24,292 bases of DNA from a virus (taxonomy: Duplodnaviria; Caudoviricetes), in the IMG/VR virus record IMGVR_UViG_3300014202_000308, positions 1-24,292 of that record, one strand, 5' to 3'. The position numbers were made by a program, and so were the translations under genes. Below the pieces are notes generated by a model, which was given only the letters and a program-made list of their open reading frames with translations, ran no database searches and was not told where the DNA came from. This document shows, piece after piece, positions 4,625-22,118 of this stretch. Each line of letters starts with the position of its first letter. The first letter of the stretch is position 1.

Positions 4625-4902
4625 ACGGCATAATCTCGCAGGCCGGTGTGGGAGCCGTGCGCCGGGTCGTGGACGCCCACATGCGGCTGTACTACCGCAA
4701 ACCGCTGGCCGACATGGTGGCCATTGCCGGCGCGCCGGGCTGCTGGCACGACCGCACGGCCGTGCTGCACGGGTGCCTGTGCTGCGGCGGCGCGTTCAGC
4801 GTCCAATACCGGTATCTCGACCCTCCCCGCGACCCCATCACCGGGCGCTTCGCGAGCCCCTACCGATCCTGGCGCGTGCTGCGCGCCGCGGAGCCGTCGT
4901 GA
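4621..4902 (+). CDS. Hypothetical Cys-containing phage protein
   Basis: ATGA and GTGA overlaps with both neighbours; CLCCGG motif. Confidence 0.6.
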   Translation: MNGIISQAGVGAVRRVVDAHMRLYYRKPLADMVAIAGAPGCWHDRTAVLHGCLCCGGAFSVQYRYLDPPRDPITGRFASPYRSWRVLRAAEPS

Positions 4903-7257: not shown

Positions 7258-7906
7258 TCCGGAATCCTTGCTGCTGCGCCTCAACATCGCAAGCCCGGGG
7301 ATGGTGGGCGGGGGTGGAGCCTACGGCAACCTCACTCGGCAGGATATCGCCGCCGCGCTGGGCATGGGCGGGCTGGCCGATCACCTCTACTGGCTGGCGC
7401 AGGTGATGTACTGCGACGACACCAGCAACCGGTCACGGCTCGCCAAGGTCGCGTGGTTCGAGTTCGCCCAGGTCGCCAAGTCACAGGGCTGGCAGCGCAG
7501 TCACTACCAGCGCGGCCGGCAACTGTTCCGCGCCTGTGCCGTGGTGGCGCTGTTCGAGTTTCTGGGAGAGGCCGGGCGGCGCTGCCCGGCCTGTCAGGGC
7601 ACCGGACTGGCGCCCAAGCGCAAACGCGAAACCGCGGCCCCCGGAACCAGCGCACCGGCCGCGCCGCCGGCGCCCGGCAACTGCGCGCGCTGCAACGGAT
7701 GGGAAAGGGTGGAGCTGCTGCCGTCCGAGCGGCTGGCATTGCTCAACCAGGCGCTGAGCACCATCGGCGACGAAATGGCGTCATCGAGCTGGTACGAGAT
7801 CTGGCACAGCCGCTATTGCGAAGCGCTGATGATGGTCCAGGGCTGGCACGTCGAGCTGCAAAGGCATGTGCGGCGGTATACCAAAAACGCGGAGAACGTG
7901 GCGTGA
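7250..7906 (+). CDS. Q: Late-gene antitermination protein Q (lambda-Q-like zinc finger)
   Basis: LTRQDIAAALG N-terminus; CPACQGTG...CARCNG zinc finger; W...W..RY C-terminus; ends the early right operon. Confidence 0.8.
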   Translation: MASPESLLLRLNIASPGMVGGGGAYGNLTRQDIAAALGMGGLADHLYWLAQVMYCDDTSNRSRLAKVAWFEFAQVAKSQGWQRSHYQRGRQLFRACAVVALFEFLGEAGRRCPACQGTGLAPKRKRETAAPGTSAPAAPPAPGNCARCNGWERVELLPSERLALLNQALSTIGDEMASSSWYEIWHSRYCEALMMVQGWHVELQRHVRRYTKNAENVA

Positions 7907-7956
7907 CGTGTTAGCCGCGACACGTTGAAAACGCGGCATCACTACGAGGATCTACG

Positions 7957-8181
7957 ATGAAAGACCAGCACGAAAAGATTAAGGGATACCGCGACCTCTC
8001 CCAGGAGGAAATCGACCTGATGAACGAAGGCAAGGATTTGGCGGAACAGTGCGGCGCCTACATTGAGAAACTTATGGCGAACGAAGGGATAGACAAGCGG
8101 GCTGTTGCGCTCGGCAAAACGAACCTTCAGCAGGGATTTATGTGGGCCATCCGCGCCGTGGCGCAACCCACAACGTTCTGA
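7957..8181 (+). CDS. acb2: Acb2-like anti-CBASS cyclic-nucleotide sponge protein
   Basis: MKDQHEKIKGYRDLSQEEIDLMNEGK...R...LGKT.LQ.G.M..IRAVAQP..F matches the Acb2 signature as I recall it, including Y11 and K26; GAGG RBS. Confidence 0.88.
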   Translation: MKDQHEKIKGYRDLSQEEIDLMNEGKDLAEQCGAYIEKLMANEGIDKRAVALGKTNLQQGFMWAIRAVAQPTTF

Positions 8182-8223
8182 CGCATTCTCGAATCACCAG
8201 CTACCGAGTAAAGGGGAAACAAA

Positions 8224-8472
8224 ATGGACGTGAACACCGGACACCTCGTGCGTGTTCTAGCCAGCGCGCTAGAAAAAACTCGGCACCATTACACGCCAAT
8301 ACCAGCGTCATTGCTTAAAGATGCCGAACGCGAGCTCAAAGGTCGCGACGAAACCTATGTGAATCTGAACCAGGCTGGAGCACTTCCCGGATGGGCCAGA
8401 AATAAGAAGCGCAAGAACCGAGCAAGGGCAAAGCTCGCTAAGGCTAGCCGGAAACGCAACCGCACAGCCTAA
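8224..8472 (+). CDS. Hypothetical protein with basic C-terminal tail
   Basis: AAGGGG RBS; tail RNKKRKNRARAKLAKASRKRNR. Confidence 0.7.
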   Translation: MDVNTGHLVRVLASALEKTRHHYTPIPASLLKDAERELKGRDETYVNLNQAGALPGWARNKKRKNRARAKLAKASRKRNRTA

Positions 8473-8501
8473 TTGGACAAACAAACCTAGGAGAAACCTG
8501 G

Positions 8502-8798
8502 ATGAGCGACCGGATTCTTACATGTGTGTACTGCGGCCACGAATACCCGCAAGGCACCCCTGCTTGGGGCAATGTAGTGCTGACCGAGCACATCGCGAAG
8601 TGCGAAAAGCACCCGATGCGTCGGACAGTTGAGGAGCGCGACAGGCTGCGCGCTGCGCTCGTTGGGCTCGTGGGAGCGAGTGATCCGGCTGAGCTGCGCG
8701 AAATGGAACTGGCGATGCGGGTGCTGCCGGCGCCGGCCGAGGACAAGGCCGCAACGCTGGACGCAATACACGCTCTGATCGCAACGTGCGCGAACTAG
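8502..8798 (+). CDS. Zinc-finger hypothetical protein
   Basis: AGGAG RBS; CVYCG...LTEHIAKCEKHP motif. Confidence 0.75.
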   Translation: MSDRILTCVYCGHEYPQGTPAWGNVVLTEHIAKCEKHPMRRTVEERDRLRAALVGLVGASDPAELREMELAMRVLPAPAEDKAATLDAIHALIATCAN

Positions 8799-8856
8799 TG
8801 GACATCAAAGCGCGCGGATGAAGAAGGATTTGGCGGAACAGCGCGGCGCCTACATT
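8797..8856 (+). repeat. Chimeric intergenic patch copied from two neighbouring genes
   Basis: 8797-8825 is identical to 9812-9840 (29 nt); 8824-8856 matches 8032-8064 (32/33 nt). Confidence 0.9.
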
Positions 8857-8981
8857 TTGGCCTCCAGTTTCGTCAGCGGCGACATCGTATCCATCGATTG
8901 ATGGAACAGAACCATGAATATACCAGATCGAGCCAAAAAATTTGAGCCGATTGCGCGGCTCGAGAACGGGGGAACCGACCG

Positions 8982-9509
8982 ATGTTTAGCACGATGACAG
9001 AGCAGGCACTAGCGTTGAACTTGTCAAACGAAGCAGGCGCCGCTGGCCTTGTGACGATGACAGCCGAGGTGTATCGAGAACTTGTCGGCGCTGCGCGCGC
9101 TTGGGACGCCGTGTGCTCAGGAGCGAGGGCGCCGATGTGGGAGCCCATCAACTGGCGGCAGGTTGCTGAGCGCGATGAAGCCGGCGGGCGGACGCATGCG
9201 GAGCGCGAATACCTGCGCACGCTGCGCGAACTGCAAGAGCTTGCCAAGCGGGCGCCCTACGTGAGCCAGGATTGGGTGCGCGAAGTGGCGCGCATGGACG
9301 AGATGGACATGCGGCGCCGGCTGATCCGCAGCCACGACTGGCACGGCCACTTTGCGCACAGCCTGGACGGCATCCCGGAGATTCGGAACCTGCCGGGATC
9401 TGGCATTGACGGCTGCCGAAGCCACAAAGAAGTTCGCGCCGTGGTGCTGGCCCTGCTTCAGCAGATCGAGCGCCTGAAGACGCCCAACGCTAAGGTAACC
9501 GGCCCATGA
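8982..9509 (+). CDS. Hypothetical protein whose C-terminus reads into an attC-like remnant
   Basis: GGGGG RBS-like run before ATG 8982; 175 aa; ends TPNAKVTGP. Confidence 0.65.
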   Translation: MFSTMTEQALALNLSNEAGAAGLVTMTAEVYRELVGAARAWDAVCSGARAPMWEPINWRQVAERDEAGGRTHAEREYLRTLRELQELAKRAPYVSQDWVREVARMDEMDMRRRLIRSHDWHGHFAHSLDGIPEIRNLPGSGIDGCRSHKEVRAVVLALLQQIERLKTPNAKVTGP

Positions 9510-9520
9510 CGGAGTTGGTA
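9482..9520 (-). other. Internally deleted attC-like site
   Basis: The minus strand reads TACCAAC...CGGTTAC-CTTAGC-GTTGGGC, a perfect GTTRRRY with a 6-nt spacer and L'-like box; the L'' arm is missing. Confidence 0.5.
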
Positions 9521-9548
9521 TTTTTCGGATCTCTACCGGGAGTGAGCA

Positions 9549-9752
9549 ATGGGCTTGGAATTTAGGACAACGAACGCATGTGCTCAACTCACTCGCTACG
9601 GCGGTGCAGTGGCGACCCCAGAACTGGCTGACGTGTTGGAGGCTCTGACCGACATAAACGACGATCTTTGGCACGCGCGCGATCCGGCACTGATTAAGGC
9701 GCAAGTTGAGAAAGTAAAGGCGCTGCTGGATGCTGTTGCGGCTGGCGCATGA
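9549..9752 (+). CDS. Small hypothetical protein
   Basis: GGGAG RBS; 67 aa, predicted helical. Confidence 0.6.
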   Translation: MGLEFRTTNACAQLTRYGGAVATPELADVLEALTDINDDLWHARDPALIKAQVEKVKALLDAVAAGA

Positions 9753-9802
9753 GGGCGCCCAAATCAACTGGCGGCCGTTTCGGCCAACGATTGGAGACCA
9801 GC

Positions 9803-10351
9803 ATGGGACTGAGTGGACATCAAAGCGCGCGGATGAAGAACGACGAGTGGTTGACCCCTCCGGAGATTGTCTCTTCGCTCGGCCCGTTCGATCTTGACCC
9901 GTGCAGCCCGGTGGAACGGCCATGGCCCACTGCGGCGCAGCACTTCACCGTGCGCGACGACGGGCTGGTGCAGCTGTGGCATGGCCGGGTTTGGTGCAAC
10001 CCGCCTTTTGGCCGCCAGGCGGTCAAGTGGCTTCGGAGGATGCGCGACCACGGCAACGGCGTGGCGTTGATCCCGGCGCGCACCGAAACCGCGATGTTCT
10101 ACGAGACGGTGTGGGGGCATGCAGCCGGCGTCCTGTTCCTGCGCTCACGTCCGCATTTCCACTACGTGGACGGCCTCCGAGCGCCGTTCAACAGTGGCGC
10201 TCCGATATGTCTTGTGGCTTACGGCCCCGCGAATCTGGACGCCCTGATGGAAAGCGGGCTGGGATTCACCGTAGTGGGAGCTAACGCCTGGGTTAACGCG
10301 CGGCGTAGCCGTCGCGTTGAACCGCTGGCTATGCCGGCGAACTTGCAATGA
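9803..10351 (+). CDS. Phage DNA N6-adenine methyltransferase (Dam-like)
   Basis: DEWLTPP, FDLDPC, DGL..W.G.VWCNPPF and LIPART motifs; GGAG RBS before ATG 9803. Confidence 0.9.
   Translation: MGLSGHQSARMKNDEWLTPPEIVSSLGPFDLDPCSPVERPWPTAAQHFTVRDDGLVQLWHGRVWCNPPFGRQAVKWLRRMRDHGNGVALIPARTETAMFYETVWGHAAGVLFLRSRPHFHYVDGLRAPFNSGAPICLVAYGPANLDALMESGLGFTVVGANAWVNARRSRRVEPLAMPANLQ
10279..10334 (-). other. Integron attC-like recombination hairpin (56 bp), antisense to the genes
   Basis: The minus strand reads GCATAGC-CAGCG-GTTCAACG-CGA-CGGC-TAC-GCCG-CG-CGTTAAC-CCAGGC-GTTAGCT. This is R''/5 nt/8-nt L''/stem-loop/7-nt L'/6 nt/R', with two unpaired bases on one arm. Confidence 0.68.
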
Positions 10352-10361
10352 GGAATAAACG

Positions 10362-10658
10362 ATGAAGATGCTGACGGTAGAACAGAAGGACGGCTCCGTG
10401 TGGGGCGTGCCGGTGGATGTAATCGCGCGAGACCGCGCCAAGCACTACGCCAGGGAGTTCGATGGTGATGTGGAGCGCAGCCTTGCGGAAGACACGCTGC
10501 CGCTGTTTGAGGATGACCCATATGAGGTTGGGGACTGGGCTGCGAACCAAATGAATTGGAGCGACGTAGCCGCTCATGCTAGAAAACTGAAGGACGCACC
10601 GCCGCCTGATTTTCAGGATGCATGGATGAGCGGAGCGAAAGATGTTGTTGATGCCTAA
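10362..10658 (+). CDS. Acidic hypothetical phage protein
   Basis: GAGG RBS; DWAANQMNWSDV motif; D/E rich. Confidence 0.75.
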   Translation: MKMLTVEQKDGSVWGVPVDVIARDRAKHYAREFDGDVERSLAEDTLPLFEDDPYEVGDWAANQMNWSDVAAHARKLKDAPPPDFQDAWMSGAKDVVDA

Positions 10659-10671
10659 AGGAGAGCACCCC

Positions 10672-10896
10672 ATGAGCAACAAACTGACGTATGCGACATT
10701 TTGGTTTGTGTGGAACCCCAACGGTCGGAACCCGACATACAAACACACAAGCGAAGCCAGCGCAACGTCCGAATCCGAACGCCTGGCGCGACTGCACCCC
10801 GGGGAAACATTTGTGGTGCTGGAAAGCGTATGCGCTCGCCGAGTTGACGACATGCTGCGGATTGAGATGCGGCAAGATAGCGAGGTTCCGTTTTGA
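10672..10896 (+). CDS. Small conserved phage protein
   Basis: AAGGAG RBS; FW.VWNP.G..PT.KH.S...A..E.ERLA..HPG..F.VL motif. Confidence 0.75.
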   Translation: MSNKLTYATFWFVWNPNGRNPTYKHTSEASATSESERLARLHPGETFVVLESVCARRVDDMLRIEMRQDSEVPF

Positions 10897-10956
10897 TGAC
10901 GCCGAGCTGTAATCAGACGCCCGTCCGGACGCTTCCATGACCGCGCACGCACCCAC

Positions 10957-15657: not shown

Positions 15658-15677
15658 CTCGCTTCGGCGAGGTTTTT
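15658..15677 (+). terminator. Intrinsic terminator after the terminase
   Basis: CTCGC-TTCG-GCGAG-GTTTTT. Confidence 0.7.
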
Positions 15678-15679
15678 AT

Positions 15680-15748
15680 GCCCCAGCTTCATTCCGCGAG
15701 GTACCCATGCCCCTGACCCCAGACGAACAGGCACGCCTGACCAGCCTG
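15680..15748 (+). repeat. Direct repeat copy 1 (gpW leader and first 14 codons)
   Basis: 66/69 identical to 18350-18418; offset 2670 bp. Confidence 0.95.
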
Positions 15749-15814
15749 GTGGCGCGTGAGTACATCGAGCGGGCGCAACGGCGGGCTTCCGATGGGTCGG
15801 CAACATGGCAATAG
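15707..15814 (+). pseudogene. Truncated gpW 5' duplicate forming a 35-aa leader ORF
   Basis: MPLTPDEQARLTSL, then unrelated sequence; stop TAG at 15812-15814 overlaps the start of the next gene (ATG 15805). Confidence 0.7.
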
Positions 15815-18282: not shown

Positions 18283-18349
18283 CGTAAAACCCCGCCCTTC
18301 AGGGCTGGGGAGATAGAAGCCACAGGCTTTAGCCGTGGGGATCAGTTAC
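18283..18349 (+). mobile_element. Miniature non-autonomous IS200/IS605-family remnant (PATE-like: left and right end hairpins only)
   Basis: CGTAAAA-CCCCGCCC-TTCA-GGGCTGGGG (left-end-like hairpin) joined to GAAG-CCACAGGC-TTTA-GCCGTGG-GGATCAG-TTAC (right-end-like hairpin). No tnpA/tnpB. The left boundary is uncertain. Confidence 0.7.
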
Positions 18350-18418
18350 GCCCCAGTTTCATTCCGCGAGGTATCCATGCCCCTGACCCCAGACGAACAG
18401 GCGCGCCTGACCAGCCTG
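18350..18418 (+). repeat. Direct repeat copy 2 (intact gpW leader and 5' end)
   Basis: 66/69 identical to 15680-15748. Confidence 0.95.
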
Positions 18419-18604
18419 ACGGCGGCGCGTGATGCGATTTTGACGGGCCAGCGCGTGGGCAGCTTTCGGGATTCCGACGGCATGCAGACGAACTATGCCG
18501 ACATGACCGATGCCGACAAGCGTCGCCTGTTTGCGGAGATCGACCGGCTGCAAGCGCTGGCGACGACGCAGCGGCCCCGCGGGCCGGCGAGGGTAATGTG
18601 GTGA
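18377..18604 (+). CDS. W: Head-tail joining protein, gpW family
   Basis: 75 aa, A...ILTG..V...RD.DG....Y.....L...I..L pattern; immediately upstream of the portal; GAGG RBS. Confidence 0.85.
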   Translation: MPLTPDEQARLTSLTAARDAILTGQRVGSFRDSDGMQTNYADMTDADKRRLFAEIDRLQALATTQRPRGPARVMW

Positions 18605-20373
18605 GCGCCGCACCGGTCACTGCCGCCGACGAGGTAAAAACGCTGGTCGGGCCGCGTGGCGAAGTGCTGCGCCGGTTCAGTACCACGGGCGCGGGGGTGA
18701 GCGCGTTCAACGCCACCCGCCCGTCTGGCACCGAGCTGATGCGGTTTGCGCCCAGCCTGGCGTCCGCCGATGGTGATCTGCTGCCCGAGAAACGCGAGCT
18801 CGACGCCCAGGCGCGCGACAACGTGCGCAATGACGGCTATCTGTCGGGTGCGCGGCAGGTCCACGTCGACAACGTGGTGGGCAATCAATTCCGGTTGAAC
18901 GCGCGCCCGAACTGGCGCCTGTTGAGCCGCATCAACCCGGCGCTCGACGAAGCTTGGGCGGAGGAATTCGCGGCCACGGCCGAGGCGCGTTTCAACAACT
19001 GGGCGGAGGATGAAACCAACAACTGGCCCGACGCGCAGCGCATGCAGAATTTCACCGGGCTGGTGCGCATGGTGGCCATGCAGTTGTTCGATGTGGGCGA
19101 ATTTCTCGCCACCGCCGAGTGGCTCAACCGGGGTCCGTACCGCACCGCCCTGCAGGTGATCGATCCGGATCGGCTGTGCAATCCCATGGGACAGAGCGAC
19201 GGCCCCACGCTGCGCCGGGGAGTGATCCTGGGCCGACGGGGCGAGCCGACCGCGTATTCGATCCGCGTCAGTCACCCGGACGATACCCTGGGTTACACCA
19301 CCAACCAGTTCCTCACCAAGATCGTCCCGCGCTTTCGGCCCTGGGGGCGGCCGCAGGTCATCCACCTGTTTTCACGCGAGCGCCCGGACCAGAACCGCGG
19401 CGTGAGCCGGTTGGTGGCGGTGCTGCGCAACATCGATACGACCCGGCGCTATTCGGATCTGGTGTTGCAGAATCTGGCGGTGGGCGCGATGTACGCCGCG
19501 ACCCTCGAAAGCGATCTCGACCGCGAAATGGCGATGAGCTACATCGGGGTCGAAAACCCCGATGGCACAACCAGCGAAGTGAACTACTACGACTGGATGA
19601 TGGGGCAGATCGAGACCTACAGCGAGAACGCCCGGCTGCGCATCGACGGCGTGAAAGTGCCCTATCTGCCCATCGGCACCAGCCTGAAGATGAACACCGC
19701 GAAGAACGCGGGCGGCGTCGGCTCCGATTTTGAAGACAGCCTGATCCGCAAGATCGCCGCCGGTATCGGCATGAGCAAAGAACGCTTCATGCGTGACTGG
19801 AGCAAGACCAACTATTCCAGCAGCCGCGCGGGATCGCTCGAAGACTGGAAATACTTTCTGTCGGTGCGGCGGTTCGGTCCGCATCGCTTCGCGTGCATGG
19901 TGTACCAGCTCGTGCTGGAAGAGATGTGGTATCGCAAGGAACTGCCGATGCCGCGCGGCGCCCCGGATTTCTGGGAGATGCCGGCAGCCTACGCGGCTTG
20001 CACCTGGCGCGGTGCCGGGCGCGGCCAGATCGACCCGGTGAAAGAGACCACCGCGTCCGTGATGAAAAACGAGGCGGGGCTGTCGACGCTGGAACGTGAG
20101 GTATCGGAGCTGAACGGCGAAGACTGGCGCGACGTGATCGACCAGCGCGCCCGGGAACGCAAATACGCCGCCGACAAGGGGCTGCCGGCGATGAGCCTGT
20201 CGATCTCTGCGTCCAGTGCCGACAACAATCCCGAGAACGATCCGAGCAACCCGAACGATCCCAACAACGCCAATGGTAACGACGACGGCGTGAGCGGGAT
20301 CACCACGCGCGTCACTCTCACGTCTATCCCGCCCGCGAAACCGCGCGTGCGGGTGACCGGGGGGCCGGCATGA
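18601..20373 (+). CDS. Portal protein, lambda family
   Basis: ARD.VRND, VDNVVG, LQVIDPDRL, ERPDQ.RGVS, D.SK.NYSSSR and IDPVKE motifs; GTGA overlap with gpW. Confidence 0.95.
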   Translation: MSAAPVTAADEVKTLVGPRGEVLRRFSTTGAGVSAFNATRPSGTELMRFAPSLASADGDLLPEKRELDAQARDNVRNDGYLSGARQVHVDNVVGNQFRLNARPNWRLLSRINPALDEAWAEEFAATAEARFNNWAEDETNNWPDAQRMQNFTGLVRMVAMQLFDVGEFLATAEWLNRGPYRTALQVIDPDRLCNPMGQSDGPTLRRGVILGRRGEPTAYSIRVSHPDDTLGYTTNQFLTKIVPRFRPWGRPQVIHLFSRERPDQNRGVSRLVAVLRNIDTTRRYSDLVLQNLAVGAMYAATLESDLDREMAMSYIGVENPDGTTSEVNYYDWMMGQIETYSENARLRIDGVKVPYLPIGTSLKMNTAKNAGGVGSDFEDSLIRKIAAGIGMSKERFMRDWSKTNYSSSRAGSLEDWKYFLSVRRFGPHRFACMVYQLVLEEMWYRKELPMPRGAPDFWEMPAAYAACTWRGAGRGQIDPVKETTASVMKNEAGLSTLEREVSELNGEDWRDVIDQRARERKYAADKGLPAMSLSISASSADNNPENDPSNPNDPNNANGNDDGVSGITTRVTLTSIPPAKPRVRVTGGPA

Positions 20374-22118
20374 GCGCCCCCGAGCGCGTATTGATCGGCA
20401 ACGCTGAGTTGTGGCACGGCGAGGGTCTTGACGTTCTGCCTCTGCTCGATTCGGTATCCGCCGTGGTGACCGATCCGCCCTACGGCATCAGGTTTATGGG
20501 CAAGCGCTGGGACTACGACGTGCCATCAACCGAGCTGTGGGCGTTGGTGCTGGATCGCCTGCTGCCGGGCGGCCACCTGCTGGCATTCGCGGGAACCCGC
20601 ACGCAGCACCGCATGGCCGTGCGGATCGAAGATGCCGGTTTCGAGATTCGGGACATGCTGGCCTGGGTGTACGGGTCTGGATTTCCGAAAAGCCTGGACG
20701 TGGGCAAGGCGATTGACAAGCAGGCTGGCGCGAAGCGGGACGTTATTTCGTCCTGCGCGACTGGCTGGAGCGGCACCCTCGGCGGGAGATCGGCGTTTTC
20801 CGGGCTTGGTGGTGCGCCAGATGTGCGGACCGTTACGGCACCGGCAACCGACCTCGCCCGTCAATGGGATGGCTGGGGCACCGCGCTCAAGCCGGCCTTC
20901 GAGCCGATCACCTTGGCCCGCCGGCCTCTAAGCGGAACGGTCGCTCAGAACGTGCGGGCGCATGGCACCGGTGCGCTGAATATCGATGGATGCAGAGTGC
21001 CTACCGACGAAGTGCTGCGTGCCGGCACCGGCAACATTCCCTGCCGGCACGACCAGTCGCAGCCACGCGGGCGAACTGGCGAGGCCAGTGCGCAGCGCCG
21101 CTATACCGAAAACGGAGGCACCGACTTCGCAATGACGCCGGGGCCACGTGGCGGCGATCCCGCAGGCCGCTGGCCCGCCAACCTGATCCACGATGGCAGC
21201 GAGGAAGTGTTGGCGCTGTTCCCTGACTCGAAGGGGCAGCAGGGGGATCTGCGCGCGACGGGGCGTGCTCGCCCGTCATCAGGTCGATTCGGCGACATGG
21301 CGCCGCCGACCCCGCACCCTGCGCGAAACGATACTGGCAGCGCCGCCCGGTTCTTCAAACAATGTTCATTCAACGAGGGGGACGCATGCGACCTTGCGAA
21401 CATTGCGGTGCGCCTTTCCGACCAGCAAAAGCCATTCGACGCTTCTGCTCTCGTTCGTGCAGTCAGCACGGTGCTCCCCGAGGAATTGTGCGCGGCCGTG
21501 TCGCTCTCGGAACCACTCACTACGAGCGCCACGGGGCGGCAGTTAGAGACGCTTTGCGCCAGCGCTATGCAAGCGATCCAGACTTTCGGACCAAGGTTCT
21601 GGCGCGAGCCGCAGCCCGGCGAACTTTCCCTGACGCTCAACCGTGTGAACGTTGCGGCGCACCGAACGCCGACAGGCATCACGACGATTACGGTAAGCCA
21701 TTGGAGATCCGATGGAAGTGCAGAGCCTGTCACGTTCATCATCACGCCGACGAGCTCGGCAGTTGGGGCGAAGGACTCCGTGCCGTCTACGGCCGCTAGG
21801 CTGATGTACTGCGCCAAGGCGCGCGCCTCCGAACGTGGCGCAGGCAATGACCATCCGACGGTTAAACCGCTGGCGCTGATGCGCTGGCTGCTGACCCTGG
21901 TGGTGCCGCCACATGGGCTTGTGCTCGATCCATTCCTTGGATCTGGATCAACCGGTGTCGCCGCCATTGAGATGGGTATGCGGTTCATCGGTATCGAGCG
22001 TGATCGCAAGTCCTTTGAAATCGCCTGCGCCAGAATCGAAGCTGCCCAACGGCAAGGCCGGATGTTCAGCCCTGAGCCCCCAGAGATGCCGGAGCAGGCA
22101 AGTATGGGCCTGGCGTGA
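20370..22118 (+). CDS. DNA N4-cytosine/N6-adenine methyltransferase (beta class) carrying a ~137-aa in-frame insertion
   Basis: VTDPPY (motif IV), GFPKS, GTALKPAFEPI, GRWPAN, HPTVKP, VLDPFLGSGSTG (motif I) and FIGIE are all in one frame. Confidence 0.93.
   Translation: MSAPERVLIGNAELWHGEGLDVLPLLDSVSAVVTDPPYGIRFMGKRWDYDVPSTELWALVLDRLLPGGHLLAFAGTRTQHRMAVRIEDAGFEIRDMLAWVYGSGFPKSLDVGKAIDKQAGAKRDVISSCATGWSGTLGGRSAFSGLGGAPDVRTVTAPATDLARQWDGWGTALKPAFEPITLARRPLSGTVAQNVRAHGTGALNIDGCRVPTDEVLRAGTGNIPCRHDQSQPRGRTGEASAQRRYTENGGTDFAMTPGPRGGDPAGRWPANLIHDGSEEVLALFPDSKGQQGDLRATGRARPSSGRFGDMAPPTPHPARNDTGSAARFFKQCSFNEGDACDLANIAVRLSDQQKPFDASALVRAVSTVLPEELCAAVSLSEPLTTSATGRQLETLCASAMQAIQTFGPRFWREPQPGELSLTLNRVNVAAHRTPTGITTITVSHWRSDGSAEPVTFIITPTSSAVGAKDSVPSTAARLMYCAKARASERGAGNDHPTVKPLALMRWLLTLVVPPHGLVLDPFLGSGSTGVAAIEMGMRFIGIERDRKSFEIACARIEAAQRQGRMFSPEPPEMPEQASMGLA
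21386..21799 (+). CDS. Nested out-of-frame zinc-finger HNH-like endonuclease inside the methyltransferase gene
   Basis: GAGGGGG RBS then ATG 21386; N-terminal CEHCG..F...FCSRSC zinc finger; C-terminal CERCG...HHDDY.KPL.I.W.CRACH..HH beta-beta-alpha-metal-like motif. Confidence 0.8.
   Translation: MRPCEHCGAPFRPAKAIRRFCSRSCSQHGAPRGIVRGRVALGTTHYERHGAAVRDALRQRYASDPDFRTKVLARAAARRTFPDAQPCERCGAPNADRHHDDYGKPLEIRWKCRACHVHHHADELGSWGEGLRAVYGR

Follow-up and report, generated by a model that had tools for sequence, protein, structure and literature searches.

A probable relic of an inverted integron cassette array in a lambda-like phage

The virus record IMGVR_UViG_3300014202_000308 carries, within a block of small accessory genes, a hairpin at positions 10279-10334 that resembles the attC recombination site of integrons but lies antisense to the genes around it. 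This raises the question of whether the hairpin is an attC site and, if so, how phage genes came to stand back to front beside it. We analysed the whole record, a stretch of 24,292 nucleotides (nt) that is about 41% complete and is referred to here as the window. It encodes a lambda-type gene set (repressors, replication initiator, helicase loader, Q-like antiterminator, amidase, terminase, portal and protease), and the block consists of small plus-strand open reading frames (ORFs) at 7957-10896, between the Q-like gene and the lysis genes, among them an Acb2/Tad1-family gene and a Dam-family methyltransferase gene. The hairpin matches an integron attC site, judged by its layout and by a covariance model. 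We think it quite likely that it is the last whole site of a decayed inverted array in a lambda-like phage, an array likely built by an integron integrase (IntI) and a site likely frozen by a mismatch in its R'' box.

The site and its parts, all read on the minus strand, are as follows.

10279..10334, top strand on minus, antisense to the block genes: attC site (covariance model and box layout)
10334-10328, minus strand: R'' box, followed by a 5-nt spacer
10322-10315, minus strand: L'' box, followed by a 16-nt terminal stem-loop
10298-10292, minus strand: L' box, followed by a 6-nt spacer
10285-10279, minus strand: R' box; crossover at 10284^10285

The box order, the spacers and the two unpaired bases on one arm are as a first-pass annotation had described them, at the same coordinates. 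The R''-5-L''(8)-stem-L'(7)-6-R' spacing of attC sites is present, the L boxes are intact and paired (predicted pairing 0.90), and the unpaired bases at 10319 and 10312, both on the R''-L'' arm, correspond to the extrahelical bases of attC sites. R' is intact (GTT); the R'' triplet reads AGC instead of AAC. Folding alone is modest (z of -2.5 and -2.0; 5/200 shuffles as good on each strand), and Rfam has no match at the hairpin. A covariance model, which the first-pass annotation had proposed as a check, was built from 31 aligned attC sites of bacterial genome contigs, with stem covariation checked; one of the 31, L230, sits in an inverted array. This model matches exactly 10279-10334 on the minus strand with 44.2 bits and an E-value of 3.4e-8, a rough value since the calibration was short, and it finds no second significant match in the window (next best 9.7 bits). 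An initial attC pattern detector did not pick up the site, and relaxed settings recovered it alongside five probably false matches; detector counts below come from stricter settings, which yielded one match in 290,932 shuffled bases. Positions 9152-10953 recur with no difference in a contig from what may be the source run, which shows that the AGC is not confined to the window's assembly.

With the model match on the minus strand and the genes on the plus strand, the antisense arrangement reported in the first-pass annotation is confirmed, and it is not confined to the window. We ran one attC pattern over viral and bacterial collections, the bacterial scan covering 4 of 64 parts, and called the orientation of the best ORF between successive sites. 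Viral cassettes were antisense in 56 cases, sense in 13 and unclear in five (n=74), as against 19 antisense, 187 sense and 37 unclear on bacterial contigs; 12 of the 13 viral sense cassettes come from one record, G039, which has a standard array with its own IntI. Covariance-model matches were antisense to the anchor gene in 68 of 71 cases from 96 sources (94 of 113 loci with Dam homologues and two overlapping regions), and in all 46 cases from a search of 98 loci. The layout is intact in locus L002, where each pair of neighbouring minus-strand sites encloses a single plus-strand ORF. Read on the gene strand, a unit of an inverted array runs hairpin, ribosome site, gene, YYYAA, and 18 of the 56 inverted ORFs read on into the neighbour's attC. 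On these sequence comparisons, inversion is the rule in phage cassettes and not in bacterial contigs. One bacterial array, L755, has mixed calls, three sense and two antisense.

The inverted units also carry the mark of circles. Among 48 viral inverted cassettes, the initial four R'' bases agree with the far end of the cassette itself in 32 and with the array neighbour in 3 (p 4e-6), and the bacterial control gave 128/147 for the cassette's own end and 51/147 for the array neighbour. As a class, viral inverted cassettes thus have complementary ends of their own, as in an excised circle.

Integron integrases accompany many of these arrays. An IntI protein search gave 282 viral stretches, of which the best 80 were retained, and the genome IntI samples are likewise best-80 lists. 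Around the 80 viral loci, 175 of 179 model matches are of the upstream type, on the opposite strand to intI, and the intervening ORFs are antisense in 31 cases, sense in none and unclear in nine. A tree of 223 IntI proteins, including the genome matches nearest the phage type (241 loci less 3 short and 15 duplicate sequences), has one clade (support 0.995) that unites 63 of 70 viral IntI with three genome-borne ones and contains 19 inverted and no standard arrays. Two of the three genome-borne members lie in clear prophages; the third, L774, is too short to tell. The motif YAAC-N10-CGACA, our candidate for a conserved phage attI, occurs at most 260 bases upstream of 26 of 59 viral but 3 of 73 genome intI genes, and it also ends two arrays, L010 and L081, that have no adjacent intI in the stretch fetched. 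In many phages, attI is directly followed by a phage-borne intI that points the same way as the cassette genes. A LexA-like box lies upstream of 2 of 63 viral and 14 of 72 genome intI genes.

A search for intI in phage and host, as the first-pass annotation had advised, found it in both, next to arrays with the same Dam family. At a prophage end in L131, about nine inverted cassettes including Dam and one standard cassette accompany an intI in the same direction, beyond which lie an excisionase-like (xis-like) gene, a phage integrase (int) and host genes. The standard cassette, at L131:1630-2199, encodes a membrane-like protein and is the only one in that orientation in the array, and the L131 IntI carries a 9-residue tandem duplication. 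L083 is a chromosomal integron after ftsK-lolA whose IntI falls outside the phage clade and whose cassettes are standard apart from an inverted Dam cassette; as far as its sequence can tell, it shows cassette traffic in the phage-to-host direction. Two viral loci are built otherwise. In L553, near-identical attI motifs at 4845 and 8219 flank one viral intI, with attC matches upstream of each. In L529 (6138-7839), a viral intI outside the phage clade has attC matches downstream, on the intI strand, and one cassette called as sense.

The genes of the block in the window are listed below.

9803..10351, plus strand: Dam-family N6-adenine methyltransferase gene (Pfam PF05869)
10362..10658, plus strand: 98-amino-acid (98-aa) gene, phrog_17928 (function not assigned), owner of the attC site
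10672..10896, plus strand: 74-aa gene (weak match to phrog_17352)
7957..8181, plus strand: Acb2/Tad1-family anti-defence gene (PF24729)
8224-8472, 8502-8798, 8982-9509 and 9549-9752, plus strand: four small accessory ORFs

The Acb2/Tad1 gene bears out the earlier description of an anti-defence block. The Dam ORF reaches the crossover without meeting a stop codon and continues for 22 codons, through its neighbour's attC, with the hairpin-encoded tail that had been noted; the gene's own attC, upstream in relatives, is not detectable in the window. The first-pass annotation had proposed testing whether gene-content breakpoints fall at the G^TT position, and among Dam homologues they do: YAAC stands at the window's crossover position in 14 of 113 loci (12 distinct), and in nine of the 14 a model match starts at the crossover, each a different hairpin. 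The nearest homologue, L001, is identical to the window at 28 of 30 positions before the crossover and 13 of 29 after it, but this drop coincides with the end of the conserved Dam protein and so is not proof on its own. On the loci compared, the exchange of entire hairpins at a single base is stronger evidence.

Homologues of the 98-aa gene assign the hairpin to a cassette. Three of 16 homologue loci (L396, L397 and L404) have model matches on both sides and an intact GTTATGC where the window has GCTATGC, and complementary own ends are found in L397 and L404, though not in the decayed units of the window. By this comparison, the hairpin is part of the 98-aa gene's cassette, to the right of the crossover. 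The 74-aa gene is preceded in two runs by an apparent attC right end, none of which is left in the window. In the five closest Acb2 homologue loci (L417-L421) an attC precedes the gene, and its right end is still present in the window at 7903-7916. PHROG and Pfam have no match for the ORFs at 8224-8472, 8502-8798, 8982-9509 and 9549-9752; searches found no relatives of the 8982 ORF and only weak relatives of the 8224 ORF, with no model match in the two loci searched.

The far end of the block resembles an attI site.

10900..10927, no strand assigned: attI-like site; a sister phage rejoins the window at 10906^10907

This sister phage, L660, has late genes 97-98% identical to those of the window and other genes in the accessory block, with one different inverted attC (33 bits). 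At the rejoining point it reads TAA^C, followed by a stretch resembling phage attI. Contigs of two other studies supply two more relatives, and in all three the constant part follows a different sequence that ends in YTAA; the window reads GAG^C, with GAG where the relatives have TAA. The breakpoint test comes out less clearly here than for Dam, in that two of three breakpoints of the sister block are not at a clear G^TT. The Acb2 attC remnant is identical in the sister phage, in another context. L660 also has a second Dam-family gene (L660:3111-3710, 70% identical), between the Q-like gene and Acb2 and led by an apparent right half of an attC. An exact match to the attI pattern at 10719-10737 in the window was rejected: it lies inside an ORF and lacks the AATT core, and the count of one-mismatch matches is at chance level.

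Remains of two further sites can be made out in the window.

7903..7916, minus strand: remnant R'' end of the Acb2 cassette's attC (14-nt right-end matrix score 15.5, best in the window)
9482..9505, minus strand: possible truncated attC half (R', spacer, L'; matrix score 2.0, not significant)

The next-best window score with the 14-nt matrix is 11.2, although 7903-7916 scores weakly (3.5) with a 22-nt matrix. One relative continues at 9482-9505 with an attC-like left half. No second whole site is present, so neither neighbour of the hairpin could be excised by attC x attC recombination. The hairpin itself no longer has a complementary AAC/GTT core: its R box has AGC against GTT where homologues have AAC, and the predicted R-box pairing is 0.0007, lower than in all 164 intact viral sites (median 0.61), although these were selected for AAC/GTT. 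In the predicted fold of the coding strand the L boxes are kept (0.90) and the spacer is mispaired. A non-complementary middle base of the cleavage triplet is reported to lower IntI1 recombination from 2.2e-3 to 6e-6 (Frumerie et al., PMC2811028), and the window mismatch is at the same triplet position, although the published mismatch was T:T with IntI1 and not C:A with a phage IntI. The same R'' triplet is broken at the next base in a close relative, present in two runs of one study, and AAC/GTT is kept in 472 of 481 detected sites. As the first-pass annotation had said, the window has no integrase: no tyrosine recombinase was found on its contig, about 41% complete, nor on that of the sister phage. 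With the R'' mismatch, neighbouring sites that are fragments only and no integrase on the contig, this copy is likely inactive. The suggestion that an IntI-like recombinase shuffles the accessory genes as inverted cassettes fits the lineage, with its attC sites, inversion, breakpoints and IntI genes, but not this copy as a working site, which is the only whole attC and has a mismatched R box predicted to be unpaired. We considered whether AGC might be compensated by the GCT at 10906 and rejected this, since relatives keep that end with different R'' sequences; 0 of 286 cassettes show such a compensating pair.

How would such arrays work? The hairpin-first order of the inverted unit would make the coding strand the strand that is folded and cut. 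We propose that IntI cuts the folded coding strand, excises units as circles and inserts them at attI, at the downstream end of the phage operon. With inversion, the upstream promoter of that operon would be able to read cassette genes that have no promoter. Inversion would also keep phage cassettes unexpressed in host integrons, and host ones unexpressed in phage arrays. The phage intI would be read together with the array and not through SOS, as the scarcity of LexA-like boxes suggests. Arrays that lack an integrase would borrow IntI; in the window lineage, lysis genes come directly after the accessory block, where other phages have intI, and IntI may have been borrowed from the host or another phage. 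The replication origin of lambda lies in its O gene. If the origin is in the O-like gene here too, the folding strand in the window would be the lagging-strand template. That configuration is reported to favour recombination (PMC5371416). More broadly, it seems reasonably probable that temperate proteobacterial phages run an integron system of their own, with an IntI clade, a conserved attI, satellite arrays that rely on an integrase supplied in trans, and a back-to-front pool of counter-defence cassettes (Acb2/Tad1, methyltransferases) that trades with host integrons, each side's cassettes being silent on the other.

Several observations weigh against these proposals. IntI is absent in 5/5 complete array-bearing phages and scores above the family cut-off in only 2 of 41 further records. 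The site is missing from 99 of the 113 Dam loci, the family being mostly not cassette-borne. Orientation was called with an ORF scorer that we made and trained on window genes, cassettes that share a contig are not independent, and the IntI tree was made with FastTree and midpoint-rooted on the best-80 samples. At the right end of the block, spacing in the attI-like site falls 3 nt short of that in the phage attI motif, and in two runs of one study the window version is present but the sequence departs from the window immediately beyond it; at the left, the sister breakpoint at 7905-7907 is a short microhomology and that at 8184, after Acb2, is ambiguous. Comparative support for a phage variant of the integron is nonetheless good, as far as sequence comparison goes.

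Other explanations account for parts of this evidence. A chance GC-rich hairpin would agree with the modest folding scores (z of only -2 to -2.5) but is hardly credible, being refuted by the model E-value and by another run, in which the same core with an intact R'' precedes a different gene. Phages might instead merely capture pieces of host chromosomal integrons, with inversion an accident and no phage system behind it. Capture of this kind has been published (PMC9892861), G039 carries a standard array with IntI, and the phage site L087 shares 92.5% identity with plasmid DNA that is annotated as lying between aacA34 and aadA2. Block capture preserves the relative orientation of gene and attC, however, and thus cannot give 56 antisense to 13 sense cassettes, and membership of the IntI clade is limited to viral records plus three genome-borne loci whose arrays are inverted; we find this account already hard to hold and regard it as very improbable.

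Two further alternatives grant the hairpin an integron origin. The block may have been built by ordinary phage mosaic recombination around an old integron hairpin that persists as the Dam tail or as an RNA structure, as the microhomology joins at 7905-7907 and 8797-8856, the Acb2 remnant shared with the sister phage in another context, and a stem kept while R'' was broken in two ways would suggest. Yet the crossover is precisely where Dam homologues and 98-aa homologues break, and sequence differences among the three relatives extend as far as AA^C of the attI-like site. Mosaic recombination therefore likely explains the recent decay and not the origin of the array, and as a full account it is quite unlikely. 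A reading in which the site remains functional, receiving incoming cassettes as a solitary landing pad through a mismatch-tolerant IntI of host or phage, is also unlikely, if a shade less so. In its favour, the paired L boxes and both extrahelical bases are kept, and the middle base of the triplet is reported to be tolerant where both sides are complementary, attI1 with GCT being unaffected (PMC2811028); against it stand an R box predicted to be less paired than in any intact viral site, the second break in the same triplet in a close relative, and the near-universal AAC/GTT. We therefore retain the reading of an inverted array, likely built by IntI, that has decayed to one whole site.

The arrays differ from known systems in specific ways. 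Phage attC sites as such are known: Qi et al. (2023, PMC9892861) reported 17 clusters of attC sites lacking integron integrases (CALINs) and 3 complete integrons in 10,705 phages, and IntI1 recombined five of six phage attC sites tested. Those CALINs share with the loci described here attC sites in phages, often without an integrase, and DNA methyltransferase cargo, but their definition requires two sites, and the window has one whole site. Counting at least two attC sites without intI, L002 and L007 are CALINs and the window, with one model match, is not; an intI adjoins the array in L131, L498 and L739 but not in the window. Box spacing, extrahelical bases, crossover, complementarity of a cassette's own ends, the IntI family (TIGR02249) and an intI opposite the attC top strand are common to the phage arrays and to class 1 and sedentary chromosomal integrons. 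In a standard cassette, however, the ORF lies on the attC top strand and is followed by its attC, whereas phage cassette genes, including the window ORFs, lie on the bottom strand and the hairpin leads its gene. Integrons with an inverted integrase resemble the phage arrays in that intI and cassette genes point one way (PMC13323075, 10.1101/2022.02.06.479319), but there intI is flipped relative to attC, onto its top strand, whereas phage arrays keep the intI-attC geometry (175/179 matches opposite intI) and flip the genes. The main text of Qi et al. is silent on genes inverted relative to attC, on a phage IntI clade and on a shared phage attI, although its supplement may show orientations. In the literature covered, which did not extend to subscription journals, we found no paper on systematic cassette inversion or a phage IntI clade, both of which appear from our comparisons to be features of phage arrays.

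Small phage accessory genes are usually credited to illegitimate recombination. If phages shuffle them with an integrase of their own, counter-defence would have the same tool with which bacteria stock defence genes, attC sites would mark gene boundaries for the mining of anti-defence genes, and cassette movement between phage and host could be tested by a standard assay. The window copy would show the end state, a decayed array.

Other features of the window are recorded here. Positions 8797-8856 are chimeric: 32 bases repeat the start of the Dam gene (9812-9843) and are joined to 33 bases copied from within the Acb2 gene (8032-8064). The joint is spanned by contigs from two studies and is thus probably a genuine rearrangement scar. 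About 80 bases of intergenic sequence are repeated, at 15676-15754 after the terminase gene and at 18346-18432 before a head-tail gene; the sister phage has the repeat too. A second methyltransferase gene (PF01555) lies at 20370-22118, between the portal and protease genes; its long middle part is unmatched, and an ORF at 21362-21799 overlaps it. A tRNA gene lies at 2413-2484, just upstream of the replication initiator.
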